64,000 nucleotides of DNA from contig CAJINV010000016.1 of NCBI GenBank assembly GCA_905178155.1, positions 1,393,386 to 1,457,385 of the forward strand, given 5' to 3'. Each line of letters starts with the position of its first letter. The first letter of the stretch is position 1. The position numbers and the translations under genes were made by a program. Source of the stretch: Amoebophrya sp. A120. Taxonomy: Eukaryota > Protista > Dinoflagellata. Positions 21,833-42,500 of the stretch are shown here, piece by piece. The notes beneath the pieces were generated by a model. It was not told where the DNA came from. It made no database searches and saw only the letters and a list, made by a program, of their open reading frames with translations.

Positions 21833-24031
21833 CTAGGACCTGAAAATATAATCTTCGTCTAGAAAGTTCACAACGCATCTCTTCCAGCCACACCGAGCGC
21901 TGTAGTACTTGACGAAGTAGCAAGGATCATGATAATTTGTCCCGGTAGCAGTTCGAAATGTCGGAGCTGCCTTGTCGCTATCGCGCATCTTGTCTGCGTG
22001 CGGATCTTCTTTTTGTCCTTGGTCAAGATGAGCATGCTCCACCTCCACAAACCCACACCTCCCCTCCATCTGCTCGTGCGACCAGATCGGTCCTTGTCCC
22101 AAGTTTAGCGTTAGCAGCCTCGTCTGTCCATCGTGAATGGCGTGCGTTAACTTCTCCAGGTCGCGCAGAAAAAGCTCCGTGTCGGGCAGGCGGGTTTGGT
22201 TGTTGCTCACCATGTTGTCACTGTTGTGCTGATTCAGTAGGTCGTCAGCTTCACTGTTCATAACCGCCACACCTCCACCATTATCCTTCTCAAACAATTC
22301 CGACATGGGGTTTTGCCGCTGGGTGAATTTGCACCCGTCGAGGGTCAAGTGCTCGATGTCCGAGGTTTTTAAGGCTGAAATCAAGAACCAAATATTTCCG
22401 TAGTCCGCGAATCGGAGGGTTAAGAATCGTAGGGTGGAGGACGCTCCGATTGCGCGAAAGGTGTCGGGTTGAAGGAAGTCCCCGCAGTTGTTTGTGAGGA
22501 AGAGTGTTTCTAGTAGATGCGCTGAGGGTGGTTGGACAACTCCTGTTGTGGCCGCAGCTGTTGTAGTGGGAGATGCAGTAGGTGCATGAGCTTGAGCCTT
22601 CTGGCTCTTCAATTGCGCTCTTTGCTCCCTCGTTGGCTTAATTATTCCCGGGTGCTGGACCAGAATCTCTTTCAACCTCTGCTGCGTCGTCATTTGCAGT
22701 CGTGGTTCGTCCGGGTTTTCTTCTTGTCGGTGCAGGTGCTCACAATAGTCGGTGTCGAGTACTAGGGAATAGAGTGTCGTTGGTGTGAATTTCTTGCTCC
22801 TCCACTGCCAGAACGCGTCGCTTGTGAATCTTTTGTCTTCCTCCGGGAAGCTGTAGCGAATTTTGGTCGAGGACATTTTTGCTTCGCTACGTGTCAGGCG
22901 AGATTCAGGTCCTCGGTCACTAGGCGCAACTAGAACTTCATCGGTGACGTCGCTTTTTCTGGCTTGTCTCAGATCCGCACTCAAGGGATTCTTTTTGCAG
23001 ACGATCTTCAGTGTGGTTCTGGCTGCGGAGGTTTTTTTCCCGCTGGTGTTCTTGGAGGCTTTCATCTTATCCTTTGTTTTATGACTTGTCGCATTGTTGT
23101 AAATCTTGCCGTCGGTTCGGTACAACGCGTCTGACAGCATTCTGTCAGAACTGATCTCCTTGTACGTGCTATCCATCCCGCTTTCCAGAAACAGATCCAG
23201 CATCCAAAACCCGCAGTAATCCAACGCGTTGTTCACCAAATACCCTTCGTGAAATTCGTCAACCCTTCTAATCCGGTCGGACGTCAGCTGGCCCAAATGC
23301 TTGGAGTGGTTGAAGGGCGGTGGCTGTTTCTCCTGTTTAAGTAGACTGGGCTGGGCCTGTTGTGAAGGGGACTGTAGAGCGGCGCTTGGTCGCAAGGCAC
23401 TTCCACTTGAGGTAGATGCGACACCGCTAGACGGCGTGGCCCTGCTCGTCGTCGTCTCTCGCCGTTCGTAGTCAGTGATCCTTCTGGCGAGGCAGCGCTT
23501 CAAGGTATGCAGGTCCGGCTCCTGCCGGTGATCGAAGAACTCTGCCGTGGGAAGCGCGATGACCTTCGTCGAAAGGAGAGATGGTTGTGGCTGCTGACGG
23601 GTCGATGATGACGATGATGTTTGTTTTGCATGGGAAGTTGCATGCTCTGCAGCTGCAGCACTCACATACTCGATCTCGCACCATTCCGGATAAAAGTTTT
23701 CCTCGGACAAGGAAACCGATGGGGACGGCGCAGCGATTCTCTTCGACACACCGTAGCGAGGCGTTCGTCTTCGGCCTCTTTTTCTCTTGTTAGTCTTAGC
23801 TGCAGAAGACTCTTCGCCGCTCGTAATGGTAGTTGCCTCGGCCTTCTTCGAATTGGAATCACGTCTAACAGCACGATAGGTGTTTTTCCTTTTCCCCTTC
23901 CTCTTGGAGGACGAGGTGCTGTCCAGAGAAGACACAGAGGACCCCGCGGTAGAGACATTGGACCGCAAGCTCGAGTTACTGCTATTGCTCAAGGAGCGGA
24001 GCAGGGAGGAGACTGCCGGGGCTGGCAACAT
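21833..24031 (-). CDS. Hypothetical protein with C-terminal leucine-rich-repeat-like units, 732 aa
   Basis: Uninterrupted ATG ORF; LETLFLTNN, LRFLTLRF, IEHLTLDGCKF, LLTLNLGQ. Confidence 0.65.
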   Translation of the reverse strand: MLPAPAVSSLLRSLSNSSNSSLRSNVSTAGSSVSSLDSTSSSKRKGKRKNTYRAVRRDSNSKKAEATTITSGEESSAAKTNKRKRGRRRTPRYGVSKRIAAPSPSVSLSEENFYPEWCEIEYVSAAAAEHATSHAKQTSSSSSTRQQPQPSLLSTKVIALPTAEFFDHRQEPDLHTLKRCLARRITDYERRETTTSRATPSSGVASTSSGSALRPSAALQSPSQQAQPSLLKQEKQPPPFNHSKHLGQLTSDRIRRVDEFHEGYLVNNALDYCGFWMLDLFLESGMDSTYKEISSDRMLSDALYRTDGKIYNNATSHKTKDKMKASKNTSGKKTSAARTTLKIVCKKNPLSADLRQARKSDVTDEVLVAPSDRGPESRLTRSEAKMSSTKIRYSFPEEDKRFTSDAFWQWRSKKFTPTTLYSLVLDTDYCEHLHRQEENPDEPRLQMTTQQRLKEILVQHPGIIKPTREQRAQLKSQKAQAHAPTASPTTTAAATTGVVQPPSAHLLETLFLTNNCGDFLQPDTFRAIGASSTLRFLTLRFADYGNIWFLISALKTSDIEHLTLDGCKFTQRQNPMSELFEKDNGGGVAVMNSEADDLLNQHNSDNMVSNNQTRLPDTELFLRDLEKLTHAIHDGQTRLLTLNLGQGPIWSHEQMEGRCGFVEVEHAHLDQGQKEDPHADKMRDSDKAAPTFRTATGTNYHDPCYFVKYYSARCGWKRCVVNFLDEDYIFRS

Positions 24032-24621: not shown

Positions 24622-25927
24622 TCAGGCCAGCGGATTGAAAAAATCATCTATCGCAGTCCACACACTCCCGCCCCGATTCTTACTCCCCCCGCCAGCAATA
24701 TCAAATGCAAAAATGTCTGGGTCTGGAAGGTTGTAACTTGTGATGCGTCCTGTGGATCACACAAAAATCTGTGTTGCGTGATCACCAAAAGTTGTTCTTT
24801 TTTGACCAACATGAGCGGCAGTTTCTCATGCAGGATAGGCATGATGGGGACCATTTCGCAGTATCTGTCATGCTAGGCCCTGCATTCCAGACCTCATGGG
24901 GCACGGAAAATATGCATGACAAATGCAAATCTCGCAATCTTCCTGACCCAGACACTTTTGCATTTGATAAGCACCACCTGCACCCGCAACGGGCGCCGGA
25001 ACTGGAGCAGTCACGGCTGCCGGCGTCGCGGACACCGGCGGTGTGTAGTAGGGCGTTCGTTCGCGTTGCGCGGCTAACACCGCGGATCGCTCCTTCGCTT
25101 TGACCACAGACGCTGGCTGGCGCTCTTCCGGAAGTAGTTTGTAGAGATCCTTCTCCTCGTAGTTGTCCATTTGCAATGGCATGTCGCTGAAAAAACTCCA
25201 GTATCCAGTGCAAAAGTATCGCACTCGTACATACTAATTGCAGCCATGCATGACAGATCTATTTTCTAAGGGAAAACAGCATTACAAATTGCATTTTTGT
25301 TCTTGAGAAAATTTGTCATGCAGTTTATACTAGTAGTACGATACTTTTGCACTGCATATCCAGAAGCGGTAGAATTCTGGGAAGGACTTTTGGTGTTCGA
25401 CTTCTTCCCGGAGCTCCTGCTCGTCATCGGCCAGCTGTTGTTTTTGATGATAGACATTCAATCTTCAGCAGCATTAGGTTGTGTTTTACGAAGACAAATG
25501 GCGTCAGCAATGATGTTTCCGCATGAGAAATTGCACTCCGCATAAGTAGGAATCAATTGCAATTCGCCAGAACAAGCCCAACTACACGAACACGATGCAA
25601 TAGCAATTACATCAATACCGCAGATTTGTCAATGGTGACGCCGTTAGGTAGTTGGATGAAATCTGACAGAAACGGCCTTTGGTCGTCCTGCTCGGCGACT
25701 TTCAACGCTCGTTGGTCCGGTTTCTTCACCAAAATTTTGTCGAGGAAGTCTACTCGTTCTTTTAGCAAGTGTAATTGCAAATCCAGTTTCGCCACTTCCT
25801 TCTCCGTTTTGCTCAGCATGCACTGGTCCTCACCGAGCAAGCGGATGACGGTTCTTTTCTGGGAAGTAGTTCCGTCCGGCGGAGAGCTGGGCATGGCGCC
25901 CGGTGGAGGGGGGCCGGGGGAAGTCAT
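24622..25927 (-). CDS. Hypothetical protein with a short coiled coil; multi-exon
   Basis: Exons join across introner 25202-25358 (FYRFWSFFSD) and introner 24699-24969 (GAGGGSKNRG...FFNPLA stop), plus one conventional intron; start uncertain. Confidence 0.6.
24699..24969. mobile_element. Introner, TIR family B
   Basis: tatcaaatgcaaaaatgtctgggtctggaag ... cttcctgacccagacacttttgcatttgata; TSD AGCAA/AGCAC. Confidence 0.92.
25202..25358. mobile_element. Introner, TIR family A
   Basis: tatccagtgcaaaagtatcgcact ... agtacgatacttttgcactgcata; TSD TCCAG. Confidence 0.92.
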
Positions 25928-26679
25928 TTTGTCGGTCGAGATGAAATATCCGGGGAGCGGAGTATCAAATTGTCTTTGTTGATTAGGAGAAGAAGATCAA
26001 AGCAATCTAGTGAGCTAGAGCTTCTTTTAATTATTCTCGATGTGAGAGCAGAAAGCGGTAGCAATTGCATTCGTATATACAGAAGTATAGAAGCTTCGCT
26101 CAAACAAGATTTGCTCCGACGACCAACTCAGAAGCGATTGTGCGCTCATGCGTGACGATCGCACAGATGCGTACGCTCCAACATCTGTGCGTGACGTCTT
26201 TAAAGCATGACAATTCCACGGATTTTACTGCTCATCTTCCAACGATGAGCTGCAACAGCAACTACAGCAGCTAGCACATGCTACGATGACTCTCCCTCTA
26301 CATGTGATCTACTTCTGGGGCAGCTAGAGCGACTCGAAGCCGTCGCCATGTTATTCTTATTTCTGATTCTGAGTTTAATCACCACAGGCCGGGACGAAAT
26401 ACAACACATTTTCGCCAAGACAAGAGTTTGCAGTTGAAGTTGTAAGGACTGTGCCGACATCACATGAAATATTGGCCTTCGCGCTCGACGGACATCAGAC
26501 GAAATTATTGACTCAATTCGCACGCAGAGACACCAGACAACCAACCCTGATCACAATCGCTGCGCCGTTAAGCAAGCATACAATAGAGATAGACGGAAGC
26601 CTTGCTTCCTTCGCGACGAAGGAACAGAAACAAGGGCTGGCCACTGGCCTCGACCAAGCAAAAGCAGTTCGCATCTCCC

Positions 26680-28600
26680 GAGCGCGCCGACTGCGAGCGC
26701 GGCCGTTGCGTTTGCGACTTCCATCCAGCTATGTTGCGACAAGGCGCGCGCAATGATTGAACGCGGGCAAGGGCGGCGCATGCCCATACCCAAGCAAGCG
26801 CGCCCTCACTCCTCCTTAGGAGCAGCGCCATCGACCCAGCGCGCGACAGAGAGGCGGGCCATGCCACAGGCGCAAAGGGGTGAGGATCAGATCACAGACG
26901 GGGGCCACCCAACCAGCGGCCTTGCTAGGAGCCGCGCAGGCTGCCTGAATACACGAAACGACGGGGGGCGCCCAGCCGCGGCAGCGCGCCCCCGCCCCCG
27001 ACCCCCCGAAGCCGACGGGCCACGCGGGGGCGCGAGGGCACTAAATCAATGCACCCAAGGCTTCGCCGGATTTTGCCCCTAACGCTTTTGGGCCGAAAAA
27101 TCCACTTTATTTCTGAAATTTTTTAAAATTTCCGAGAAGGGTAGCGGGGTGGCTCTTGGACCGGGGGCGGGTTGGGGCCCGTCCTGCAGGCTGCGCAAGA
27201 AGGCTGGCGGGATTTGGGTCGCTGCCTTCGGTGCTTCGCAATGGGATGAAACAAAACACAAAGGCGCCACGCCGCACGGGCTCGGTATGCCTCAGGAGCG
27301 CGCGGGAGGCGGCGCGCAGGCAGGCATGATGGACGTGGCTGCTCGACAACGCGGGCGCTCGGATGCGTTCGAATTGAAGTGAAGAACTTCCTTTGCGTGT
27401 GGCCAAGAAAAATTTCAAAAAAGTTTCGATTTGCCCAAAAAAAGTTTGAATTTGGCCGGATAAAATTTCAAGAGGTGCGAAAAATGGCCAAAAAAAATTT
27501 CGGAAAATCGGCCACATTAGCAAAATCCCATTGGTTTTTGCAAATTGGCCACTTTCTAGAATTTTTTTCAAATTTTTTTTGCGCGCCTCTTGATTTTTCC
27601 CGGATTTTTTTCAAATTTTTTCTGCGATTTTTCCTGGCCAAACCCAAAGAGAAATCTTCTGCGGCGGCAATGCGCCACGAGGGCGCCTCTGCTCCCCGAC
27701 AGAAGAAGGCGCAACCCCACACGGATTTGCCACTCTGGGTTCTCATCACCAGCAGCGGAGGCCAAGAGATGTGGACCACCCAAGCGGGCAAGTATGCGGC
27801 ACCTGCGCCCGGCCCTCCTCTGACAAACAGGGGCGGGAACAGACTCGGGAAATGCCTCACATCGGCCAGACCGTCGGGGAAGCAAAAAAATTCAAAAATT
27901 TTTTTTTGGCTTTTTTTTTGGATTTTGTTTTTGCGCTATGTGGATTTTCCGAAATTTTTTGCGTTAGGGTGGAAATCCTGCGAACAAGGCGGAGGAAAAT
28001 AAAAGGCCCGGCCGCCCAACAAGCGCGCCAGCCTGCGACGATTCAGGCGCCCGCCCTCGTCTTCTCTTCGCCCTTGATCCACGGGCCGCCCTGCTGCACG
28101 GTGCGCGGATCGGACCGATCCACGTTCCCGAAGCTGCCCGAAGGCCGCCAGGGCGGGGGCCGGCGCGCGGGCATGGCCGGGGCCGGCGGGCGGGCAACGT
28201 CCGCGGCCCCGCTCGGCGCGCGGCGATTCCCACCGCGCTACCTGGGCGGCCAAGGAAAGGGAGGCCGCCGGCCGGCGGTCGCTGGCTTGGAGCACGCCGG
28301 GCGGGCCGCCGGCGCTGGGTCGGGCGCAGCGAGGAGGGCGGCGCGGGGCGTCCCCCGGCCCTGCAAAGTAAGTAACCCAGGCACCGCGGCCGCCGCCACT
28401 GCCTTGCCCTAACCAATTCGACCACGCGCCGCCACTGCCTTGCCCCTGTCTAGGGGGCCGGAAATGCTCACGGCCGGCCCTCCTGCTTGCAGGCCCGGCC
28501 TGGCGCGCCCGTCGGCGCTTCTGTGTGCGCACGTGGCTGGCGAGTCTGCTGCGCGCACTGCAAAAATGGGCCTGCGGCCGTGCGGCGCGGAAGTTTTTCA
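26680..28600. other. GC-rich, homopolymer-rich intergenic island
   Basis: GC runs flanking an A/T-homopolymer-rich core; lies next to the retrotransposon end. Confidence 0.6.
27062..27984. mobile_element. Putative non-autonomous TIR element (MITE-like), 923 bp
   Basis: Imperfect TIR ttcgccggattttgcccctaacgc / gcgttagggtggaaatcctgcgaa; flanking 6-bp direct repeat CAAGGC; inner aaaatccac/gtggatttt. Confidence 0.6.
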
Positions 28601-28754
28601 CTTGCACGAAGTTCACTATCACTGCTACACTGGACGTTCTTCCGCTTGGGACTCTCAAGCAAATGAACACTGCCAAAAGCAAAACGGCTCATCTGCGTTT
28701 CTACTTAGGTGAGTCGGGTGCTGGCTGGTGGAGGTCGAGGCTGATTGTTGCGAT

Positions 28755-29129
28755 TATAAGTTTTTATAACACTGCTCAGATAAAGGACATTCACGCACGC
28801 AGAGCACGATCTTCAAATCTCTGATCCTGAGTCTCTTTAGACTTTTCGCTCGTGTTCAAGTTATGTGGTGAACCATAAACACACGGGCCAAACAAAAACG
28901 CTGTCGTAAGCAAAGCTTACGCTCGACATTCATGAAGCTGCAATAGGTGCGGCTACGCTACCTTTAGAGCTGCATGCTGCTCGGGGGAGCTCCGTGCTTT
29001 CAGGCGGGTTTTCATAGGACACAGGGGGTCCCTAGAGAGAGTAGTTTTAGTTTTAAAACTATTTCGCAAAACCGCTAAAGCCGAAGCTACCGCGAACGTA
29101 AACTGCTTGTTTAAAGTGCAAGTAAGTTT
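28755..29129. repeat. Split direct repeat B, terminal copy (375 bp)
   Basis: Matches 38341-38715 with about 12 substitutions (manual count). Confidence 0.95.
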
Positions 29130-29278
29130 GAGTAAGAAAGGCCTCCAAACAATAAATTTGTTTTTGAAAAACGCTGGAATAGAGGATGAAATAAACAAAA
29201 AATGGATGAAAAATACAGAACAAAGAGAGAAAAATGAAGAAATCTCAAGCAAAAACATCCACCTCTCACACTCGACCA

Positions 29279-32200
29279 CTATCCGGAAAAATCCGGCAAA
29301 GTGATCTCAGGTTCTTCCACATCGATGAGATTTGGGGACTGAGGGTGGAACCCCCACAAATGATGGCTTTGAAGCTGATCTGATGTTAACTCATGCAAAA
29401 CATGATTAGGGAAAGCTGCTCGCAGGCGCCATTCAATTTCAGGTCGCGTGAGCACATCCGCGATGTTGTGAGACGAGCAGAGCCAAGCAAAATAAAAGTC
29501 GCAATCTAACCGCTGAGCCAACAAGTGAAAGCTGCGCGACAGTCTTTGCGCCAGCAGGTTGCGAGAAGAATTTCGCCCGAGGTTGAAGCAAGCACCCAAA
29601 TTATCACAATGGATGATGACGCGTTTGCCTCGGACTTTGGAACGAAAAAGCTCCACGGCAACTCTAGCTGCGAGAACTTCTAATACGGCGATACAGAAAG
29701 CACCTTTGGCACTAGGATCTTCACCGTCAAGCTTGCATGCTAGAGGAACAGACTTGAGGCGCGCTTTGAGCGCGATGCTCTTCTTGTTGTCAACAAACAT
29801 GCCACCAGTTCGCAGTTGAAACTTCTCCAGATCATCGCATTTGCCTTGACGGATCAGCTCCGCGATCTGGGGAAAGTCGGAGCCGGATGCGTCGACGTAG
29901 ATGTGGACTACTTCTCGGTCCACCCGGGCTCGTGTGATGGGAATCGGCTCGATGCGCTCAGCTACTTTCGTCGCCAAACGAATCTGCGTCGCCAGGCCCC
30001 GCCGGTTGCGCGGACGCGGGACCACGCGAGGAAATTGAGAATCCACACACCACAAGTTGAAGCCGCGCGCCAAATAGCTGAGGCGCATCGACATTTGCGT
30101 CATGTGGCGAAACAAACCGGCAAAGGATTGGACTGCGCGAAGCTGGATTTTAGTTTTCATTTCCTCCCGAAAACGATCACGGAGCCCACGCAACTTGACC
30201 AATTTTTGTTCCGGGACGACCAGCAAAATGGCTTCCAGCTTGGTGTTGAGCTCGTACCCGAGTCCCAGCACAACGATCAAGAACTGGACGCTTTGGCTCT
30301 CCTTTTTGCGAAAGCTCTGCCGCCAGCCGGACAGTTCAAGCCACAAGTCAAGCAATCGCCCATCGCTATCGGCAACTGCAGGCTTGCTGTTTCCATGGAT
30401 ATCATCGATGAACAACAACGCCAGGATGAGCAAGCCACAACAGAACACAAGCTGGAAAAGTTCTGAAATAGCCACACACTGCATGACGCTGGATAAGGAC
30501 CCGAACAAACAACAGTCCGAGGAGAACAAGACGTAGTCACGCTCTTCCTCCTCCGTAGGCGGTGCTGTTTCTTTAGCTGCTGGCGGTTTCTTTCCCTTTT
30601 TCTTGCCTTTGCCCTTGGCAGGATGGGGGACCGGAGTCGACTGCTTCGAGGAACTACTGGAAGCCCCGCTTTGCGGTAGTTCCTGTTGGTGCTGTTCCTT
30701 CGGCAAACGAAAAGGCAACGGGACCCACGCGCAGTTGTTGAGGGGCGTGTCTATGCCGCACTGGTAATAAAAACTTTTCAGGTCTCGCTTCCAACCGACC
30801 GGGCAAAAAGAGTAGTAATCGTTCACCACTTTGTTCCCCGCAAACTGCAAGGACTGAGCGGTGATCTGGCGGCGCTTATCGAAATTGTCGCGAAGCTCCT
30901 TCTCAGTAACCACGTCGCCCCTAACATCTGCTTTCCACTTGAACAGGCTGGGCGAGGAAGGGCAAGAAGCAAAACATTTCTCGATCAGCGTCACGGTGCT
31001 GCGTACGCCGATGAGGCGCGTTTTTTCTTGTGCGATCAAACGCTTACTATTTTTGCGTAGATCAATACAAGTACGCGGACGCTCAGCGGGATTACTTGGC
31101 TCGCCGAATGCATCTTTTTCCTTGTAAACAGGAAATGCCTTAGCGGCGACATAAGGCGTTTGCGAAGTTTGGAGCTGAGTGTAGTCCTGGCGGCGCCAGT
31201 AACCTTTCGCCTCCATTTCACAAGCGTCCTCGTACATCAAATCGACTTCGCGCTGCTTAGCCCAATGCGTTTTTGGCGGGTGAGGGCAGTCCACCACTGG
31301 AGTCTGCGCCGCTTCTTCCAGCTGCTCTGTGATTTTCTCATTGGCAAGGAAGTTCCAGAAGCCCGAAAGCGGAGTGTGCTCGTCTTTACTTTTGAAGCCC
31401 GCGATTAGTTGGCTGAGAATGTCCAAGATCTCAGCCTCGCGCGGCTTCAGATGAGTAGCCGTTTGCAATGCGCGACGCACCCCCGCTTGGAAAAAGAGGA
31501 AATTCTTTCCTTGGTACAGGCGTTGCAGATGTGGCGCCATGTCCTTGCGCAAAAGCTCTTCCGCCGGCAGGTAGAACTGGTGGCCATGCAGAATCTGCCG
31601 CGCTTTCTCTCGGTTTTTTGCCAAGAGCGTGTCGTCGTCGTGGATTTTCTGCCATTCGGCTGCGAATCCGGTGACCTGGACGTACTCCGGCGAAACTCCA
31701 AATTCACGCGTAGCATCAAGACTGACCCGACGACGGAAATCCTGGGGCGACATCTCCGCGCGTTCCGCTGAAGATGAGCTTGAAGGTTTAGCAGAAGCCG
31801 TCTGAAGCTCGTAGATCGGATTACTCTGGATCGCCTCCGGTGCCGGATCGCAGGCGTGCGTAGCGGGTGGCGCTTGCGTGCCGCTGTAGTGCTCGCACCA
31901 CTCCGGTTTGATGGCGACAATGTCCTGGCGCCAGTCCGGCCGGTGACCCGAAGGAAAACTCTTGCCTTGCAGTGCGAGCTGCAAGTTGCAGGTCGAGTCT
32001 GGGTCGTCCCGCGCCGAAGCTTGAATGGACAGCGGTGGCTCGCTAGCCGCTGCCACATGATGAAGAATAGTCTGTGGCTCCATAGTCGCGGACGACTTGG
32101 TCGGTAAGGACGGAGAAGTTTTTGGGGAAGCGGAAAACTCCTTGATCTCGGCACCTTCTTTGAATCCCACTTTTTTCGTTCCGCGACCCGGAGAAGGACT

Positions 32201-32416
32201 GGCCCCCCGCTTCCGCGGTGGGGTCGGTGGACGTGGTTCCAGGTCTTTGCCGTGAACGCGGTTCATGACTTTCTCCGCTTTGACCTTCGTAGGGTCGTCG
32301 AGCGGAAGCGTGGTATGCGGGCCCATACGAGCCTCCAGCTCGTTCACGCCTCGCGGAGACGCTGGACCCGTTTTAGATTTTTTAATCGGTGGTCCGCTCG
32401 GCGGTGCGTTGGTCAA
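29279..32416 (-). CDS. Reverse transcriptase / RNase H of the YR retrotransposon
   Basis: AFPVYK..RPRTCIDLR, KRDLKSFYYQ, LFGSLSS, LLFIDDI (FxDD), VLGL, SFAGL; RNase H motifs IYVDAS, IAVLEVLAA, IIHCDN, SSHNIADVLTR. The ORF start is TTG; the true start may be ATG 32639 via a frameshift. Confidence 0.92.
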   Translation of the reverse strand: MTNAPPSGPPIKKSKTGPASPRGVNELEARMGPHTTLPLDDPTKVKAEKVMNRVHGKDLEPRPPTPPRKRGASPSPGRGTKKVGFKEGAEIKEFSASPKTSPSLPTKSSATMEPQTILHHVAAASEPPLSIQASARDDPDSTCNLQLALQGKSFPSGHRPDWRQDIVAIKPEWCEHYSGTQAPPATHACDPAPEAIQSNPIYELQTASAKPSSSSSAERAEMSPQDFRRRVSLDATREFGVSPEYVQVTGFAAEWQKIHDDDTLLAKNREKARQILHGHQFYLPAEELLRKDMAPHLQRLYQGKNFLFFQAGVRRALQTATHLKPREAEILDILSQLIAGFKSKDEHTPLSGFWNFLANEKITEQLEEAAQTPVVDCPHPPKTHWAKQREVDLMYEDACEMEAKGYWRRQDYTQLQTSQTPYVAAKAFPVYKEKDAFGEPSNPAERPRTCIDLRKNSKRLIAQEKTRLIGVRSTVTLIEKCFASCPSSPSLFKWKADVRGDVVTEKELRDNFDKRRQITAQSLQFAGNKVVNDYYSFCPVGWKRDLKSFYYQCGIDTPLNNCAWVPLPFRLPKEQHQQELPQSGASSSSSKQSTPVPHPAKGKGKKKGKKPPAAKETAPPTEEEERDYVLFSSDCCLFGSLSSVMQCVAISELFQLVFCCGLLILALLFIDDIHGNSKPAVADSDGRLLDLWLELSGWRQSFRKKESQSVQFLIVVLGLGYELNTKLEAILLVVPEQKLVKLRGLRDRFREEMKTKIQLRAVQSFAGLFRHMTQMSMRLSYLARGFNLWCVDSQFPRVVPRPRNRRGLATQIRLATKVAERIEPIPITRARVDREVVHIYVDASGSDFPQIAELIRQGKCDDLEKFQLRTGGMFVDNKKSIALKARLKSVPLACKLDGEDPSAKGAFCIAVLEVLAARVAVELFRSKVRGKRVIIHCDNLGACFNLGRNSSRNLLAQRLSRSFHLLAQRLDCDFYFAWLCSSHNIADVLTRPEIEWRLRAAFPNHVLHELTSDQLQSHHLWGFHPQSPNLIDVEEPEITLPDFSG

Positions 32417-33354
32417 AATAGAGTGAAGAGGACGAAGTGGTGGGCCGGCCCCGCGGTGAAGGAGGCGCCCCCGAATGCGCTTTTCCGAAGGGGAGGAAAA
32501 GTTCCTTGCTCTGCGAGGGTGCTTTTTGCACTAGAGCAGCCTTGTACGACGCGCGCTTCGGGGATGGCGACTGTTTTCGCGGGGCAGAAGAAGACGAAGA
32601 TGCCCCCGCAAACTTGGGAGAAGAACTTCTGTCGGACATGATTTGTGAGGGGGGTTTTGCAAAAGAAATTTATTGTTTGGGAGGCCTTAGTAGTTACTTT
32701 TTGTAATGTAAGACTTGCATAAGAAAAGGAACAAAGAGCCAATAGTAGTAAAAGATTTACAGGCGTAATTGTGTGACTTTTTCATAAAAATGGATAAGAG
32801 AAACAAGGTGTAAGATTTTAGTTGGAACTAAAGTGACTCTGCGTAAATTTACAACAAAAACAGCGGGGTCCACTCCTTGGGCCCTGTTGGTATTAGCGGT
32901 TTGAAGGCGGTATCGTTTCCGATTCCCAGTCTCCGCGCGACGGTAGTTGTAAGCTCGAACGAGAAGCGCGCCGAGTTTGTTTTTGTTGAACAGAAATTTA
33001 TCTACGTGGTCGTGGATGTTCCGCGAGGTAGCGCGCGGCCATAAACGTAGGCAGTCGGTCCATGACCGGTAAGACGCCTGAGTTTTGTATTCCAAGATTT
33101 CCCGAACGAAAAAGGCATCACAAAATCACCTTGAGAGCGACAGAGTTTGTACGAATTTGGCATCGTTTACCGATTGACGTTTTTGCACAAGCTAACTGCG
33201 ACGTTGAAAAGTTCTAACTTAACTTCTAAAAGACTCTAGGGTGTGCGTTTGACCTTGTTTCTGGCTGTGTTTCACACTAGTTTTACAAAACAGTCATACA
33301 AACCCAGCGCACTACAGAATCATACAAAAAACAACTGCGCTTCCGCATGCTGTT

Positions 33355-34168
33355 TCACTCTTTGATGAATTTTTTCATCTGCTCCTCCGTCAAACCCAAA
33401 CGGAAGTTACGGCTGACCGCTTTGATGCGTTTAGCTGGGGCTTTATGGAGGTCTTTGCAGTTAGTCTTCGTGCACTTACCGCGAAGATGATTAACACACA
33501 CCCTGTCACCAGTGGCAGTGGTAGTATTCGTGGTCTTAGTGGTAGTAGAATTAGTAGCGCGACGAATTTTAGAAGGCTTAGAATCATCGTCGGTACTCAA
33601 GCGCCGCTCCAGTTGAATCGCTTGCAAAAAACAGATGCGGAGCTGGGCGGTGAGCGCGAGGGTGAGGCGACGCTGGTAGTAGGTCTCCGCCGGGAGGGCG
33701 TCGACGACCGGCAGACTCTGCAAGGAAGTGCAAGCCTTGATCTGGTCGAAGAAGATGCTCGTAACCTGTTCCAGGGATAGCAGCGCCGGGGGGTCTCTCG
33801 AAGCAAGCTCCTGTGAAATCAGGTAGCTGCGGGTAGATAGCGCCCTTGATCATATCATCGCGCTGGCGGTATTGCGGGTCGTCGGTGATCTGGAGCGAGC
33901 GGAACAGAGTAGCCGCCTCGTTCATATTCATACGACAGGTCGGCGGCGTGGAACTGGAGAAAGCTTCGCGCAAGCGCTGATTCGCCATGAGTTCGGTTCC
34001 GTACCGAAATTTCCGCCCATCAATCTTCGTCGTACAAATAGCGGCTTGGGCGGTGAGAAGCGCGGCTTGCGCCGCGTCCATCGTACCGAAACCCAGCTCC
34101 GCAGCGTGGACGTTCTGCAGCTGGATAGCCGCGACGGCGGCGTCAGCAGCACCCGGAACAGCAGCCAT
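33355..34168 (-). CDS. Gag-like protein with a C-terminal CCCH zinc finger, split by a +1 frameshift
   Basis: ATG ORF 34168-33584 overlaps a second frame open from about 33850 to 33355 containing CVNHLRGKCTKTNCKDLH (C-x7-C-x4-C-x3-H). Confidence 0.6.
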
Positions 34169-34637
34169 TTTTTTCCTCTTTTTGGTGGAAAAGAAGTAGT
34201 AAATTCAAAGACAGGCTTATTAGAATTTCGGAAAAAAAAACAAACTACTTGCTTTTTGAATTTTGAGGAAAGCGCGACCTACTTGTATTTCGAGTGGGAG
34301 AGTCACTAGTTGGGCCCTGTGGGTGAAAAAGGTTTCGGCGACAAAATGACACAGAGGCAGCAACAGCTACGAGACGCGCATCTATGCTCACCAGAATTTT
34401 CACCAGACGGTCCGAGCGATATCCATATGTGTAGCAGAACACCGAACGACATTTATTTTGGAGAAGACAGAGCTTATTTTTCGAGGACGTACAGCAGAAA
34501 TTTTTTTTTTCTTGTACGAGGCGCTCCATTTTCGATTTTTTCATTTTGGAGTCGCAGAGCGTGTTGATTTATTTCGAAGTGAGCTGCATGCTGCCGCGCA
34601 GTCATGCGCTCGCTTTTTCTTGGTGAAAAACTCGAAT

Positions 34638-36959
34638 TTATTTGGTACGAGGGACAATTGCGGATGCGAGAAATTTTTCTTCACCAGGAAGCAACCTGGG
34701 CCCATCACCATCCGCCACCAACTCGGGACTCTTGTACTCGAAGAAACCGTCGGAAAGCTTGTTGGCGGGGCGGTTTCGGTCTGCTAACAAAGTCGACTTC
34801 TTGTAACGCCAGCGCTTCAGAACAAAATCGCTTCCTGATGCTAGCCTCTTCGTCCAATCGTATTCGGACGTAGGTCCGAAGTGGAGTTGCCGCAAACGCG
34901 GCCAGAAGATTGCTACGCTGTCGGGGTAGTTTCTGGACAACGCGGCGTACCCTTCGGTGGTTGTGGTGCTGTCGTGGCGGGATAAGCGGCGGAGGTCGAG
35001 CCAGGACATGCCGCCCTCCAGTGCCGACTGGATACCCCCGATTCTTAGACTATGTCCACCGTAGTCATCTTCCGCCATCCCGTCCACCGCACCGATATAA
35101 TCACTGTTGACCAGTTGATTGAAGTTGTCGGCGATGATAAGCAGTTCTTTAGGGGCTGCTTTTGTTCGGTTTACTGGCCAGCGTCTGAAGTATAACCATT
35201 CATCCGCACCCAAGCAGCAGGCTGGACACAACTTGCATTCTAAGTAATTCTTCTCGTCCACCTCGTCGGTCTCAACTATTGGCGCATAGGGGCATGAACG
35301 CCCTAGCATGAAGCCCTCGCGTTTTGCCCCCCTCTGATTTGACTTCGATGCGAAGATACAATATTCAACACATCCGCCGGAAGCCAAACGACGAGTGCTA
35401 GGCACATCGTCCAATCTGAGGAAAGCGAACCAAACGGCGATCAAAAACCTGCAAAACCTAATCGGATGCACTCCTGCCGACGTTGCCGCCCGGCCGAGCG
35501 TGGGTAGGTCTCGTTTTTGGCAAGGTTGGATGATGAGGATCAAGTGAGAGAGTCGAGTGCCGGTTTTCTGCTGGGGCGGGGCTTTAGCCTTGGTGAGGGC
35601 TTTGAAGTGGGTCGAGTACTCGGCCCGCATCTCGTAGCTAAAAGCTTTGTGATTAGAGAGTAGGCTCTTGATGTAGCTGTAGTTCGTGGCTCTGCTCTGT
35701 TTAGCCACGTCCAACTTGAGGAAGTAGCTGCAGCACAACGCCATGGAATAACTGCTCACGCTATCAGGCAGTGGACAGAGTCCACAGTGCATGAGCAACC
35801 GGATGCGCCGCTTCTTCAGCTGGGTCCGGTAAATCCCCTGCGATTTTTCGTTTCGCAAGAACGACTCGTTGCGGATTTTCAGGGTATTTGCTACATCATC
35901 TTCCGAGAGTTGGTTAACTGCTGCGGAAATTTGCGGGCGCAACGGCGGGTCTTGTTCCCATGGGCGATCCGCTAGAACCTGTTTTTTGATGGCTTCGAGA
36001 GCCTGGCCCTCCGGTAGTTCTTCTTCCTCCGTAGTCACGCGCACTGCTAGATCTTGTTGTTGTTCCGCCTGCGTCATCAGGTGCAGCTTACGCTTAAAAG
36101 CGTTATCCGATTGCAACGCGGAAAAAGAAGTTACTGCTGGCCCGTGATTCGAGACCACACGGGCCTCCTTCGGCACTTCTTTGCACGGAACAAAAGTCGA
36201 TAACTGCAGCGACGAAGAGGAAGAAGTCGTTTTCTGTTTGTGATAAACGGCGTCAGCTGGATCCCTGATCTTATTGCCCACGCCCGAGGACAGGTTATCT
36301 TGCGTGAACGCCGCAAGATTCTGCGCCAGTAGTTTTTGCTGGGGTGCCTTTTTGGATACGACATGAGCGCTAGCTGAAGACGACAGTGCTTGAGACCAGT
36401 CCATAATAGCAGCCGGCTCGACGAACTCGCTGCCGATTGCGTCGACTAACAGTCGTTCTTCTTGTAAGTCGTCCTGCTGCCGGTCGAAAAAGATCTCGCT
36501 CCCGTTTGTATTGCGGAAAACCGGACCTACCAACATCGTCTCCGATTGTTTCTTGGTCTTTTTTGATGGGCGGAAGTGGTCGTCGAGGATCTGCTCGTAG
36601 TAACAGGTCAGCAGGCTCCTCGAAAGCTGGATCCACTTGCTCCGATACACCTTTTTTGGTACCGCATCCCGGAGCTCATCGTCTTCAAAATCAGACTCAT
36701 CGCTTTCGTCTGTTTGAATCGAGTCGAAGAAAGGACGGCGCGGGCGCTTCACTCTGCTGTGATCAAAGAAGGAAGGACGATAGGTGGGGCGCTTTTTCAA
36801 AGCTGCCTCCATCGCCAAAAACTCCTTGTCGTTGTCCTTCTTCTGTTGTGCGATGTCCTCCCTGACCTGCTTGTCTTCTTTGTAGATGCGGACCGCCTCC
36901 GAAGGAACTATTGCAGGCGCAGCTGCCTGATGCTGTTCCAAAAAAGAGATCCACGACAT
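34638..36959 (-). CDS. Tyrosine recombinase, 773 aa
   Basis: Catalytic set FLRLDD (R), SKSNQ (K), GHSLRIGG (HxxR), LSRH (H), EGYA (Y); CKLCPAC. Confidence 0.92.
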   Translation of the reverse strand: MSWISFLEQHQAAAPAIVPSEAVRIYKEDKQVREDIAQQKKDNDKEFLAMEAALKKRPTYRPSFFDHSRVKRPRRPFFDSIQTDESDESDFEDDELRDAVPKKVYRSKWIQLSRSLLTCYYEQILDDHFRPSKKTKKQSETMLVGPVFRNTNGSEIFFDRQQDDLQEERLLVDAIGSEFVEPAAIMDWSQALSSSASAHVVSKKAPQQKLLAQNLAAFTQDNLSSGVGNKIRDPADAVYHKQKTTSSSSSLQLSTFVPCKEVPKEARVVSNHGPAVTSFSALQSDNAFKRKLHLMTQAEQQQDLAVRVTTEEEELPEGQALEAIKKQVLADRPWEQDPPLRPQISAAVNQLSEDDVANTLKIRNESFLRNEKSQGIYRTQLKKRRIRLLMHCGLCPLPDSVSSYSMALCCSYFLKLDVAKQSRATNYSYIKSLLSNHKAFSYEMRAEYSTHFKALTKAKAPPQQKTGTRLSHLILIIQPCQKRDLPTLGRAATSAGVHPIRFCRFLIAVWFAFLRLDDVPSTRRLASGGCVEYCIFASKSNQRGAKREGFMLGRSCPYAPIVETDEVDEKNYLECKLCPACCLGADEWLYFRRWPVNRTKAAPKELLIIADNFNQLVNSDYIGAVDGMAEDDYGGHSLRIGGIQSALEGGMSWLDLRRLSRHDSTTTTEGYAALSRNYPDSVAIFWPRLRQLHFGPTSEYDWTKRLASGSDFVLKRWRYKKSTLLADRNRPANKLSDGFFEYKSPELVADGDGPRLLPGEEKFLASAIVPRTK

Positions 36960-38155
36960 TACTCCGGCTTTGCGAACTGTTGCGGGTACGGATACTTCAG
37001 CTCGTTGAAGAGCACCCGCTGCCAGCGAGTATCTGGCTCGTTCTCGTAGATCTCGCTGAGATAGTCCGCGACGTTGGTGCTCCGCGGCTTGTCACGCGGG
37101 CCGCAATTTTTGAACCAAGTCGCACCGTCGGATTTTCTGTCAAAACCGAGACCCAAAGAAGCTTCCGGGGAGACGGTGTAGTCTCGATCACCGTCCGCAC
37201 AGCACAAGAAAAGAGGTCTCGCAGAAGTTTTTAGCGGCTGGTCCCAGTTGTATGCGGTGCTGCGGACAAAGTGCCTTTGGTGGCGTAGGTGGTGCTCCAG
37301 GAGGGACTCGAGCTCTTTCCCACGGAGGTTAACCGGGCTAGTAAACAGCTCCGGGTCAAAAATTTCAAAAAGCGATCGGAGAGTGTCGTCGGCGTGTTCC
37401 GTCGGCTCCGCCCAGCTAGCGAATCGGTTAAGACGCCGCAGCTTTGCGCACGGGCAGAGGGCCTTGTCCTCCGTGCGGACGTACAGATCTCCGGACAAGT
37501 ATTCGCTAATGTACTCGCTGATACAACGCCCGACGCAGTCCTGGCACAGAAGGAAGCGCTTCAGTTGTGCTTCCGTCCAGTCGCGGAAACAAAACGTAAT
37601 GTAACCCGCGAAGACGTAGTCCTGTCCGCGGTCCTCCGGGGCTTCGGACTTCGCGGCTTTCTCCGCCGAGGACTTATTCTGGACCTGCTTGACGTTGAGC
37701 CAGATGATGTAGCGCGCGAAACACGTCGACACGTGGCGCTTGAAGAAACTTGCCTTTCGCAGGTCAAGTTCTCGCGGCGAAAGCACCGCGTCCAAAGACT
37801 TACCCAGTCGCTCGATGCTCCGAAATTCGTGCAAAAGCTGCTGTCCCGAGAATTCTGGATATTCTTCTGGAAACAAGAAGGAGCGGTCCGGGTCGGTCGT
37901 TTTCGATCCGAAAATCGGATCCGTATGCTTCAGCTCCTTCGGGTTCTCGGCATAGACATGCTTTGTTTCTGCGATCGGAGAAGTTCTTTCCGAATTAGCA
38001 AAGCGAATCGAGAAAGGGTGAAACTTAATAAAACTTTCTTGACGATCGATGGTAGCGTAAGTTTGGTTCGAAAGTTGAGAATCAAAGCTAAAGCTTCTCA
38101 CTCGGTCTTCGACGTGCTTTTCGTTATCAAAGTTTACTGAGCTACGTCGTGACAT
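36959..38155 (-). CDS. Element ORF1, 398 aa, function unknown
   Basis: Intact ATG ORF inside the element; its stop overlaps the YR start (TAATG); Cys clusters CQDCVGRC, LCPC, LCC. Confidence 0.7.
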   Translation of the reverse strand: MSRRSSVNFDNEKHVEDRVRSFSFDSQLSNQTYATIDRQESFIKFHPFSIRFANSERTSPIAETKHVYAENPKELKHTDPIFGSKTTDPDRSFLFPEEYPEFSGQQLLHEFRSIERLGKSLDAVLSPRELDLRKASFFKRHVSTCFARYIIWLNVKQVQNKSSAEKAAKSEAPEDRGQDYVFAGYITFCFRDWTEAQLKRFLLCQDCVGRCISEYISEYLSGDLYVRTEDKALCPCAKLRRLNRFASWAEPTEHADDTLRSLFEIFDPELFTSPVNLRGKELESLLEHHLRHQRHFVRSTAYNWDQPLKTSARPLFLCCADGDRDYTVSPEASLGLGFDRKSDGATWFKNCGPRDKPRSTNVADYLSEIYENEPDTRWQRVLFNELKYPYPQQFAKPE

Positions 38156-38244
38156 CTTGCGACTGGGCGTACTTCATTTTATTTCTACTCCTGTGATTAT
38201 TTGGGTGGGACAACGAAGTTGCGACTCACGAGAAAAAAGGGTGG

Positions 38245-38345
38245 GCTGAAAAACAGAGCCCCGCTCCCCTCGAGAAAAGGAGAGGGCGGGGCGGATGTTC
38301 CTTACCCATAAGGCGTGAATGCATTGATCTAAACACTACCTATAA
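38245..38345. repeat. Split direct repeat A, internal copy (101 bp)
   Basis: Identical to 39204-39304; overlaps internal B by TATAA. Confidence 0.95.
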
Positions 38346-38715
38346 GTTTTTATAACACTGCTCAGATAAAGGACATTCACGCACGCAGAACACGACCTTC
38401 AAATCTCTGATCCTGAGTCTCTTTAGACTTTTCGCTCGTGTTCAAGTTATGTGGTGAACCATAAATACATGGGCCAAACAAAAATGCTGTCGTAAGCAAA
38501 GCTTACGCTCGACATTCATGAAGCTGCAATAGGTGCGGCTACGCTACCTTTAGAGCTACATGTTGCTCGGGGGAGCTCCGTGTTTTCAGGCGGGTTTTCA
38601 TAGGACGCAGGGGGTCCCTAGAAAGAGTAGCTTTAGTTTTAAAACTATTTCGTAAAACCGCTAAAGCCGAAGCTACCGCGAACGTAAACTGCTTGTTTAA
38701 AGTGCAAGTAAGTTT
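38341..38715. repeat. Split direct repeat B, internal copy
   Basis: Matches 28755-29129. Confidence 0.95.
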
Positions 38716-39203
38716 TCGTAGACGGCCTAAAAGGATCCTAAATCCTAGAGCATAGTCGACCGCCAATAGTACCAAAGTAAGCAGCAGCGCAGACTGCTGC
38801 AGTTACATGATGCCATTGTAACGAGTAACGGAGACTATGAGAAAGGAAAAGGAAGGGAGGGAGGTAAAACCGCGAATTTTCAAAAATTTATTTTTAAACT
38901 CCCCGCTTTCACGGTGGAAATAAATTGAACATAAAATTTTGAAGGCAGCCAGAGATGACTGTTGAAATTCGCGGTGCCTAACTCCTAAAAAAAGGAGGAG
39001 AAAGGGGAAGGAGGTGGGAGCCCTGGTTGCGTGAAAGCGAGCAAGCAGGGCAAGATAAAAATAATGAAATTCCGCGAAATCCGCGAAATATTAAAATTTT
39101 ATTTTTATGGAGCTGGAGTTCTCGGGAGGGTGGGGACGAACAGTCCCACTCACATCCTGGCCTAAGGCCGAGTGTTTAAGCAGCAGAAGGCAAAGGCCAG
39201 GAA

Positions 39204-39304
39204 GCTGAAAAACAGAGCCCCGCTCCCCTCGAGAAAAGGAGAGGGCGGGGCGGATGTTCCTTACCCATAAGGCGTGAATGCATTGATCTAAACACTACCT
39301 ATAA
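39204..39304. repeat. Split direct repeat A, terminal copy
   Basis: Identical to 38245-38345; ends in TATAA. Confidence 0.95.
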
Positions 39305-39558
39305 TTTCACGTTTTATTTCCGTTCGAGTAACTGATCACGCGCTGCAGTAAAGATTCACTGTCCTTCAACACTCATCCAATGAGGCAACTCTGTAGTTCT
39401 TCTTCTTCTGAATATGGACAGCAGATGCCGCAGGTCTGTGCCGCACAGACATCAGACACGTTGAAGTTCTAACAACTACAGCAACCTGTACTAGAAACAG
39501 CTCGCTAGTCCTTTTTTCGGTAGAAGCCGTCGATCTTGAGATTTGCAGAATTCCTATC

Positions 39559-42500
39559 TCAAAAAAACATTGAAAAGAACCCGCCTTCTTCTTTATCTGG
39601 CGCCGCTTCCGGATCCGGCTCAGGTTGCAACACTGAGTCTACTTTTGGCGCACCTCCCTTCTCACCCTCTTCGGGCTCCAGTACTATCACAGGAATCTCG
39701 TACTCCGCCTCAAATTCCTTTTTGATCCCGTCGTTACTTGAAAAATCGCCCGTCAACAAATTCGTCAATCTCCTCTGTATCCCCCGCTGGTTCACCGCAT
39801 CTCCCAACAACTGTTTATGAAATGCAAAAACATCGTACTAGTATAAATCGCATGACAAATTTCCTCAGCATGAAAAACCAAATTTGCAATGCGGATTTGA
39901 CTTGAGAAAGAAATTTGTAATGCATGTTTGCAATTACTACGAGTACGATACTTTTGCACAGGATACTGTTTCCGGTTCAGCCAATCCAACTCCTTGTCGA
40001 ACAACCCAGATTATCAACTGTAAAAGTGTCTGGGTCTGGAAGAATGCGAGTTTGTCATGCATGTCTGGCATGATTCGAGAATCTGTGTTGCATAGGCACG
40101 AAAAAGCCCTCTTACTTGTCATGCAAAAACGCAGTTTGCCATGCGGAATACGTAAGACATGGCAGCCAAAAAATTTGTCATGCATAGCTGCGTACTGCAG
40201 TGCGTCTATCATTCATTTTTAGCAGCACAATTTTCCAGACCCAGACATTTTTACATTTGATACAGATAAAGGCTTCAATTCCAACGTCATCTTCTTCACT
40301 TCCTTCCTTTTCTCCAGCCCCAACCCCTTCGCGGCTGTATCTAGATTGCAAACCAAATCAAACGCCGTTCGAAATTCCTTGTCCAAAACTTCTATCGGTC
40401 GGACGTTCGCGATTTGTAACGTTTCGTCCTTCTCTGTCGCGGCGATATCTTCTTTCAACTGCTTCAAACCGGCGAGGATTAGTTTTCGGCTCATCTTGTA
40501 CTCTTCTGTCAGTTTCTCGAACGATTCCAGCTTCTGTCTCTTCGATGCAACATGATCAGGCACATACGTCCACGTCATTTTCGCAACTTTTTTCTCCAAT
40601 TTATCGCATTTACTACTCAATTCCTCGTTTTGGTTCTTCAAGAAAGAGATCTGCTCCTCGGTCAGTGAATGGGTTTTCCACAATGATTTGCAGATAATCT
40701 GCCCGTTTTCGTCGGTTTCGGAACCCAGGTGCTTGAGTAAAATCGCGAAATCGTCTTCCAGGGAGAATTTGTACGTCTCTGTTTTGAATTCTTCGTCCGG
40801 TGCTTGGGCTTCTTTTTCTTGATATTGCGGTTGGATTTCAGGGGCTTGAATTTCTCTGTCTGCGTATTCGGGTTTGGTTTCCGGGGCTTGGACTTCTTTG
40901 TCCTCTTTTTGTGCAGCAGCTTCGCCAGATGATGTTGTTGACAAAAGTGGTTTCTTCATCATGCTCGTTGCGGCAGTGAGAGTTCGCAGCCGGCCCCAAC
41001 GTGATTTTCCGGTTGCAGCTGGGGCTTCGGTAGTCTCTGCTGGTTTACTTACAGGCTCCTCCTCTTCTGCCGGCTTCGAAGCAGGAACCTCTTCTACTTC
41101 AAGCTTTACTTCCTCGGTCGTAGTAGTTCTTACGGGTGCTGCTTGGTCCACCACCACTGCTTCCGCAGTCTCGGCTTCAACAGGCGAAGGTGTCGTATCA
41201 GCCACGGTATCCGCTTCCGCCACAGTTTCCTCAGTAATCGTCTTCCGTTTTCCAAAAGAGCCGAAAGCCGCCCTTGCTACGAATCCGCCTCTTAAACGAG
41301 ACCAACCTCTGAAGGCAGGAGACGATCCAGGGGCAGGCTTGGCTGTTGCAGCTGATTCTTCCGCAGCAGGCGGCTCCGCAGCAGGGGAAGGGGTTGGCTC
41401 CTCTGCTTCTGCAGGCTTCGCTTCTTCGGTTGACAAATCCCGCACAGCAGGAGCCGGTAGCGCCACGTCATCCGTTTGGACAGCCACGGCGCCGGGCTTT
41501 ATTTCCACAGCTTCATCAGTCTGTGGAGCTTTAACTTCTGCCTTCGCAACTTCTTCTTGTTCAGCCGGCTTCGAAGTGTCATCAGGAGCTCCCGCCGCCG
41601 CCACTTCTGTTCCGCCCTCCTCGACCGGCTCCTTTTTCTTCGGAGTAAACGCTTCCAGAGCGATTTTCGCAGCGAGATGGGCGTGGAAACCTCTCCTGAT
41701 TGCGACCCATCCTCGGGAAGGGCCGGGTCTGTTCTTCTTCGGAGGTGGTGCAGTCTCTGCTTCTCCGTCAACGGGAGCGGACGCAGCTGCTGCTGCAGCA
41801 CCCACGTCTGCTGGGGGCTGATGCGCGTCTGCTGGTTCATTCGCTTTTTCAGTAGCCGTAACTGTGGCGGCATCATCTTTTTGAGTTTCCCCGTCCTCTT
41901 GTACCCCGGGAGTTGCGCTTGCGGTGGGATCTAGTTCATCGGTCGGCTTCTCTTCTGGTTCAGCAGGCTTCGTGGCCGCGCCGACGTCTTCGACAACATC
42001 AGCACTTTTCTCTGCTGCTGCAGTATTCTCTGCACCCTGGTTTCCCACGGGTGCAACTGGGACAGCCGCATCAGAAGGGACAACTGCCTCTCCCGCGACT
42101 TCGGCTTCGTCGGTTTTCTCTGCAGTGGTCGCGTCTCCATCTACCGCTTTTGGCTCTTCCGCCGGTGCAGCAACTCCAGAAGCAGGCGCTTCTTTTTTCT
42201 TCCCAAAGAACATGCCCATTCTGAGTGTCCCCTTCGTTTTCGACCAGAATGAGCGTTTTGTCGCCGCGGGCTTCTCAACAGCTGGCTCTTGTTCCTTCTT
42301 CTCCTCCGGTGACTCCGTAACAACAGGGCCTGGCGAAGGCTCAACAGCCTCAGGTGACGCAGACGCTACAGCAGCAGCTTCATCAGGCTTTGGCTCTGCA
42401 GCAGTTGCAGGATCTTCGGCGTCGACAGGTTTTGGTGCTTCAGAATCGGGAACAACACCTGCCTCCGCTTCTTTCGGCGCGTCTCCAGATGAAACAGGTG

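Follow-up and report, generated by a model that had tools for sequence, protein, structure and literature searches.

Tyrosine recombinase (YR) retrotransposons with split direct repeats carry an internal copy of their own joined ends, and a 10.5-kb element of this kind in Amoebophrya sp. A120 raises the question of what it means when that copy stands ahead of every gene. The element occupies positions 39304-28755, minus strand, of the window, by which we mean the whole 64,000-nt stretch analysed (assembly GCA_905178155.1, contig CAJINV010000016.1, 1,393,386 to 1,457,385). Its order is repeat A, spacer, B/A junction, open reading frame (ORF) 1, YR, a CCCH gag-like ORF, reverse transcriptase (RT)/RNase H (RH) and repeat B. 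In the model for PAT and Ngaro elements, the RNA lacks the extreme ends of the element, the internal junction serves to restore them, and the YR then integrates a circle. Published PAT, Ngaro and VIPER elements have A1 at the 5' end and B1, A2 and B2 downstream (PMC6681497, PMC4157794, PMC13465315, PMC8547959, PMC3783388); here and below, statements on published elements draw on parts of the cited papers. For DIRS-1, RNA ends are likewise incomplete and are restored from the internal junction before circle integration (PMC7192593). A sequence-only reading of the window had proposed a rearranged YR retrotransposon, possibly of an undescribed lineage. Here, we show that the layout is an exact circular permutation of the textbook order A-ORFs-BA-spacer-B, and consider it reasonably likely that this is a partly decayed single copy from an Amoebophrya-associated lineage in which the permuted layout has become fixed.

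Results

Self-comparison delimits the element by two pairs of direct repeats, a B pair (28755-29129 and 38341-38715; 375 bp, 96.8% identity, E 9e-179) and an A pair (38245-38348 and 39204-39307; 104 bp, 99%, E 2e-46), and finds inverted terminal repeats absent from the element. All three joints (39304-39300, 38345-38341 and 28759-28755) carry a 5-bp core that reads TTATA on the coding strand. The limits 28755..39304 of the sequence-only reading are exact, with the core at both ends. Integration of a joined-end intermediate by a recombinase is known to be marked by such a core (PMC7192593). Trimmed to 101 bp, A1 and A2 have no mismatches, the sole difference of the 104-bp match lying outside the core. 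B1 and B2 differ at 12 positions (3.2%), none of them within the 49 nt nearest the junction; every one of the 12 is a transition. Differences thus number 0/145 in A plus the junction-near 49 nt of B, versus 12/326 in the remaining B (Fisher p 0.02, for a split picked after the data had been seen; A versus B alone gives p 0.08).

The path through these repeats is supported by independent sequencing runs. In DNA run X1, an Illumina-type contig matches 29100-38274 with 0 differences at a depth of 43.8, against 47 and 46.9 in the flanks, and because body and flank depth are about equal we regard the copy as single. The DNA depth corresponds to one spacer and two copies each of A and B, with no further A or B among the pieces listed at 80% likeness. 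At the same likeness, X1 holds one diverged relative of the RT, with 17/24 differences at third codon positions among the sites listed (p 2e-4), and two relatives of the YR (4/5); no second family member lies elsewhere in the window. Run X3, from a second sample, provides a 794-nt contig (28709-29502, 0 differences) that joins the RT end and the whole of B2 to 46 nt of flank, in a run with zero depth on B1; RT therefore leads via B into the flank, and not into A. A contig of run X4 (28740-29652) is concordant and reaches only 15 nt past the element end. The proposed order from A through the 0.5-kb spacer and B/A to ORF1, YR, gag, RT/RH and B is confirmed in its repeats and ORFs, with the X3 contig arguing against misassembly.

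Table 1 Features of the element and its upstream neighbour (window positions)
Feature	Position	Strand	Remarks
Last exon and 3' untranslated region (UTR) of upstream host gene	39305..39810	-	AATAAA 39318-39313; X3 and X4 transcript contigs end at 39305
A1, 5' terminal repeat	39204..39304	-	101 bp including TTATA core 39304-39300; 0 mismatches to A2
Spacer	38716..39203	-	488 bp; between A1 and B1
B1, internal copy of 3' terminal repeat	38341..38715	-	12 mismatches to B2
Internal B/A junction core TTATA	38341..38345	-	Copy of the predicted circle junction
A2, internal copy of 5' terminal repeat	38245..38345	-	Identical to A1
ORF1	36959..38155	-	398 aa; unknown product; stop overlaps YR start (TAATG)
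YR	34638..36959	-	773 aa; FAFLR (35429), K, HSLR (35054), H, Y
Small ORF, candidate	34245..34544	-	99 aa, between YR and gag; no match among relatives
Gag-like, first frame	33584..34168	-	Alone, matches no relative significantly
Gag-like, second frame	33355..33849	-	CCCH finger 33498-33445
RT/RNase H	29279..32530	-	1083 aa between stops; FIDD at 30412; D-E-D-D motifs of RNase H 29899-29461
B2, 3' terminal repeat	28755..29129	-	Ends in TTATA core

The coding content identifies the element as a YR retrotransposon, as had been proposed, through its RT/RNase H, the cluster match of its YR and the shared core (Table 1). The RT ORF matches its family profile at E 1e-141, and the best solved matches of that profile are caulimovirus RT (E 4e-9) and Ty3 RT (E 3e-8); a single-sequence search of the PDB gave no match. 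The ORF stops about 55 aa past the last RNase H motif, and no Pfam methyltransferase family follows RNase H in the window ORF or in 26 relatives. For the YR, the motifs listed in Table 1 are presumably, in that order, the catalytic set R-K-HxxR-H-Y. The Pfam scan alone found nothing in it; the clusters nearest to its C-terminal 331 aa are PF00589 or ALOG (score 0.98), with all ten of the best matches in one clan. No integrase family appeared in the Pfam scan of the element ORFs.

The gag-like ORF does lie between YR and RT, but it is not one ORF: the gene (34168-33355) is split over two frames, with the frame change near 33800. Since the DNA contig runs through this point without a gap, the change is a mutation or programmed and not an assembly slip. 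The second frame matches zf-CCCH_10 at E 0.0014, short of the curated cut-off, and a profile of four Amoebophrya ORFs preceding RT at E 1e-9. ORF1 has no Pfam family above noise (best E 0.09) and no match among 151 RT-bearing proteins; its predicted fold is unusable (pLDDT 33), as is that of the YR (pLDDT 31). ORF1 could be a second structural gene, yet it does not match the gag profile. ORF1 and YR overlap, and the remaining genes are 0.3-1 kb apart. Short open frames also lie between gag and RT (32639-32382 and 33125-32757), the first with a well-placed ATG and overlapping the RT frame; the N-terminus of RT may also be frameshifted.

A phmmer scan with the RT returned 165 proteins at E <= 0.001, of which the best 150 were used. 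Organisms could be named for 10 of 30 relatives looked up, all Amoebophrya sp. AT5.2. One tree held 73 rows, the window and 72 of the 150 left after filtering by motif and length, and a second held 42 hand-picked rows; all are unnamed or Amoebophrya, with no named DIRS, PAT, Ngaro, VIPER or SymbioDIRS reference row. The window RT clusters with Amoebophrya rows with support of 97 and 96 in the 73- and 42-row trees, respectively. In the latter it falls into one 13-row clade (SH-aLRT 97) with P0007, an Amoebophrya AT5.2 gene model, and P0012, the RT of a metagenome locus (L001) described below; the RT clade has both Amoebophrya and environmental members. RVT_1 matches 3 of 27 aligned family members, with E up to 1, and the family is probably under-annotated in these genomes. 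A long conserved insertion (about 31000-30520 in the RT ORF) separates the early RT motifs from a KRDL-type motif and may be the reason that Pfam misses the family. FIDD is present in the element but is no lineage trait, the first position being Y in 25 of 26 aligned relatives, with the region missing in the other.

Among these predicted proteins, P0007 fuses YR-like, gag-like and RT parts in that order, and the gene models P0030, P0039 and P0076 have gag before RT. Additional regions were also observed: P0037 and P0040 carry an AlkB-like 2OG-Fe(II) oxygenase between RT and RNase H (PF13532, E 4e-10 and 6e-16), and P0008 (Amoebophrya AT5.2), P0022 and P0028 have in common an unknown region of about 200 aa past RNase H (E 5e-9 to 3e-4), either a supplementary cargo ORF or a multicopy gene favoured as target. 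The N-terminus of P0077, a protein that falls outside the clade of the window in the 42-row tree, appears by its motifs to resemble a cytosine methyltransferase; Pfam did not confirm this. Word-based searches with RT-RH and YR gave no match, a broad profile gave two unnamed proteins, and scans of viral contigs confirmed no relative. The two nearest taxon-labelled Atlas clusters for RT-RH are dominated by Euglenozoa, which is a lead only, with the phylum known for three members each.

A metagenome scan produced one locus, L001, from 19 candidates, and it contains two elements. Element 1 reads B (5437-5705), YR, CCCH gag, RT/RH (P0012) and B (12674-12942), followed by a host ORF; its B copies are 269 bp and 100% identical. 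Large tandem arrays of 137-bp and 173-bp units lie at 1742-3319, 2-4 kb upstream of its B1, and A1 of element 1 could lie outside the locus if these arrays belong to the element. Element 2 has a 140-bp A (21392-21531), about 450 bp that end like the B of element 1, a second A (21985-22124) and then an ORF homologous to the YR of element 1 (E 3e-7). Neither element has a counterpart of ORF1, and so the extra ORF, although real in the window, is not a trait of the lineage. Among the three elements seen as DNA, B or B-like sequence lies upstream of YR in all three, A-B-A in two, and only the window element is complete; the standard A-ORFs-BA-spacer-B form was seen in none (0/3). The layout proposed for the window therefore recurs in part, as an upstream B or A-B-A, with no A found for element 1 and with element 2 incomplete.

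Runs X3 and X4 were taken to be RNA by guess, and raw RNA runs are X6, X7 and X8. In X7, about 1,450 reads cover the element, and do so only at 29073-28783 in B2; 35 reads carry poly(T) at 28783, and 222 carry the template-switch oligo at 29073. This places poly(A) addition 28 nt inside the terminal B2, and we consider the tail real because the DNA beyond 28783 is not A-rich. A structured small RNA from B lacks support, given that the 291-nt stretch is not unusually folded (z -0.8); it may be a truncated 3' fragment. X6 and X8 have no reads on the element, and X8 is no test. In X3 and X4, low-depth pieces lie at the RT 3' end and at 32977-33303 and 31625-31818. As RNA, A1 folds into a GC-rich hairpin (z -2.4; 2 of 200 shuffles equally good), and two L001 sequences folded alongside have no unusual structure (z +0.7 and +1.0). 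The spacer contains an A/T-rich motif twice (38871-38896 and 39082-39107), which also occurs on many further genomic contigs, at times in tandem, and on two X4 contigs; it is possibly a host regulatory motif, and a promoter role is a guess. The insertion point coincides with the transcript end of the upstream host gene (39305), in the same orientation.

The surroundings of the element include short elements bounded by inverted repeats (4292-4868, 11194-11467, 15700-16009, 19563-19871, 24693-25359, 39816-40263, 46668-46929 and 58742-58918), some with a very high summed depth genome-wide and a likeness to introner-like MITEs (miniature transposable elements with inverted repeats); the X3 contig of the host gene stops matching at the edge of one of them. 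Together with the co-oriented genes of the window, they resemble descriptions of Amoebophrya genomes (PMC7789003). A GC-rich island with long A/T tracts (26000-28750) follows immediately downstream of the element and separates two blocks of minus-strand genes. The RRN3 gene (55673-58864; RNA polymerase I initiation factor) is the sole confident Pfam match among 18 host ORFs scanned. Searches for Rfam families (26000-41000) and for tRNAs (whole window) were negative.

Discussion

The element has the traits of the DIRS order, namely an LTR-class RT with RNase H, a YR in place of a DDE integrase, and an internal joined-end copy with a shared core. It is a real, exactly delimited element that works like the Ngaro or SymbioDIRS types and departs from them in repeat order. 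The Symbiodinium DIRS elements (SymbioDIRS-Dnmt3 and a form lacking the DNA methyltransferase (DNMT); de Mendoza et al. 2018, PMC5890265) likewise have a dinoflagellate-side host, A/B direct repeat sets, YR in a separate ORF and a divergent RT that aligns poorly to Pfam. They come in two structures with shuffled order of YR and Pol, and their repeats run A-coding-B-A-B, whereas our element runs A-B-A-coding-B and has no DNMT. Ngaro elements share split direct repeats, the absence of a methyltransferase and the set gag-like, RT/RH and YR (PMC8547959, PMC3783388, PMC4157794), but they run A1-ORFs-B1A2B2 with gag-RT/RH-YR and internal repeats past YR, whereas here the junction precedes all ORFs, YR is ahead of gag and RT, and there is no overlap among the three. 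VIPER/TATE elements of kinetoplastids also combine YR before RT/RH with split direct repeats and no methyltransferase (PMC6681497). Their order is gag-YR-RT within A1...B1A2B2, with a CCHC box in some copies; in our element the CCCH gag lies between YR and RT, with ORF1 ahead of YR as a possible second structural gene. One Bodo VIPER copy has a doubtful A1...B1 B2 A2 order. In the PAT-like nematode Pat1, kangaroo and Toc3, split direct repeats are combined with a movable internal junction, located between the methyltransferase and YR in Pat1 and kangaroo (PMC4157794). These elements, unlike ours, have a methyltransferase past RNase H, and in none of them, in the parts of that source available, does the junction precede the first ORF. 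DIRS-1 of Dictyostelium has an internal joined-end copy, essential there, and a short core at both insertion ends, but where our element has direct repeats it has inverted terminal ones, with a complementary internal region close to its right end (PMC7192593).

The literature searched, which left out most subscription papers and Repbase, yielded no element whose junction is upstream of all ORFs; the accessible parts of PMC12130899 and bioRxiv 10.64898/2026.05.21.726589 held nothing further on layout. That junction position is what may be new here, YR before Pol and a movable junction in PAT being already known. The sequence-only reading was right that YR comes ahead of gag and RT, an order that recurs in P0007 and L001 element 1, and that the junction precedes all ORFs. 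It overstated the novelty of both, YR before Pol being published for Symbiodinium DIRS (PMC5890265) and the junction being known to move within PAT (PMC4157794). Its undescribed lineage retains the support of an RT in a well-supported clade mostly missed by Pfam; FIDD and ORF1, however, do not mark that lineage.

Circular permutation is a simpler origin for the layout than rearrangement. On the DIRS/PAT model, a genome-length RNA would begin in or at A1 and end at the B2 poly(A) site, and would thus lack the extreme ends. RT would copy this RNA, and the 3' end of the complementary DNA (cDNA) would jump from A1 to the nearby A2 and copy over the junction into B1, which would restore the lost ends and supply the overlap for a DNA circle. 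The YR would then recombine the B/A junction of the circle with a TTATA target. The predicted circle has two equal B/A joints, and opening at the other joint would swap the layouts, the likely origin of this form. End restoration fits because the poly(A) site lies inside the B after RT and because differences avoid A and the junction-near part of B. The genes are probably on separately processed RNAs, because of the distances between them (ORF1/YR excepted), which would free the gene order.

Several observations weigh against a lineage with a fixed permuted layout. No circle was seen; the sequence of a circle junction would equal that of the internal junction, and rare forms drop out of contigs. 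The X7 signal comes from one of three raw RNA runs and is perhaps one molecule, with a 5' end that is perhaps a truncation; the X3 contig continues through the poly(A) site at 28783, and in the runs examined no RNA covers A1, the spacer or the 5' parts of the ORFs. The fusion in P0007 is a prediction, its match to the window YR is weak (E 1.4e-4), and it lacks the HxxR half. No A copy was found in the 5.4 kb upstream of L001 element 1 by exact, local-alignment or reading-frame searches; the 3' part of element 2 is beyond the locus, and its left end does not have the TAA that stands before A at the junction. The window and L001 YRs do not match significantly in pairwise comparison (E 0.046), and L001 is a metagenome assembly, whose near-identical repeats are open to misrouting. 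Even three of three elements in one orientation has p 0.125 under a 50:50 choice of junction.

The explanation closest to ours is a standard A-ORFs-BA-spacer-B family whose circle integrates via either B/A joint, so that two isomers coexist, this one perhaps as a dead end. The observed layout is indeed the other opening of the same circle, Symbiodinium DIRS with shuffled YR and Pol retain A-coding-B-A-B, our sample is three elements, and the present copy has a frameshifted gag and no near-identical sisters; X3, in addition, reads past the poly(A) site. Nevertheless we consider coexisting isomers somewhat unlikely, and favour a lineage with fixed permutation, because the standard form went unseen and because polyadenylation in the B after RT would truncate RNA of the standard form ahead of the junction. 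No such isomer is described for PAT, Ngaro or VIPER in the parts of the literature available to us.

Two further explanations dispute that the repeats belong to one unit or that their path is real. A tandem of a non-autonomous A-spacer-B unit (SIRE-like or Cafeteria AB-like) with A-ORFs-B inserted at its end has precedents, given that SIRE is the A2-B2 part of VIPER and isolated AB repeats exist for Cafeteria Ngaro, and it would accommodate the 3.2% between B1 and B2 and the missing A1 of L001 element 1. It is improbable in view of the exact identity of A1 and A2, the depths of spacer, A and B with no other A/B among the pieces listed, and the second occurrence of an A-B-A-YR start in L001 element 2. 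A standard element misrouted through its repeats by the assembler is largely refuted: both layouts are valid paths in one repeat graph, A1 equals A2 over 101 bp and no listed contig spans the whole element, but the 12 differences, no more than 73 nt apart, distinguish B1 from B2, and the X3 contig, which runs without differences from RT through B2 into the flank with B1 depthless, alone settles the path.

A broader reading, which we hold only tentatively, is that parasitic dinoflagellates and related marine protists harbour an undescribed and diverse clade of YR retrotransposons that replicate in mirror image, with the 5' junction as template, the recombinase first, separately expressed genes and host poly(A) sites as the points of insertion. 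The element RNA would then be released at its first base when the host transcript is cleaved.

The replication model for split direct repeats rests mostly on sequence anatomy, and the circle junction of DIRS-1 could not be amplified (PMC7192593). The circle of the model, with two equal B/A joints, permits a permuted integration product, and the Amoebophrya element has that structure. A tally of both forms in one genome would test the circle model and whether the recombinase distinguishes the joints. If the broader reading is true, the element would represent a fifth architecture next to DIRS1, PAT, Ngaro and VIPER, and would supply genomic evidence for the reality of a circle with two junctions.

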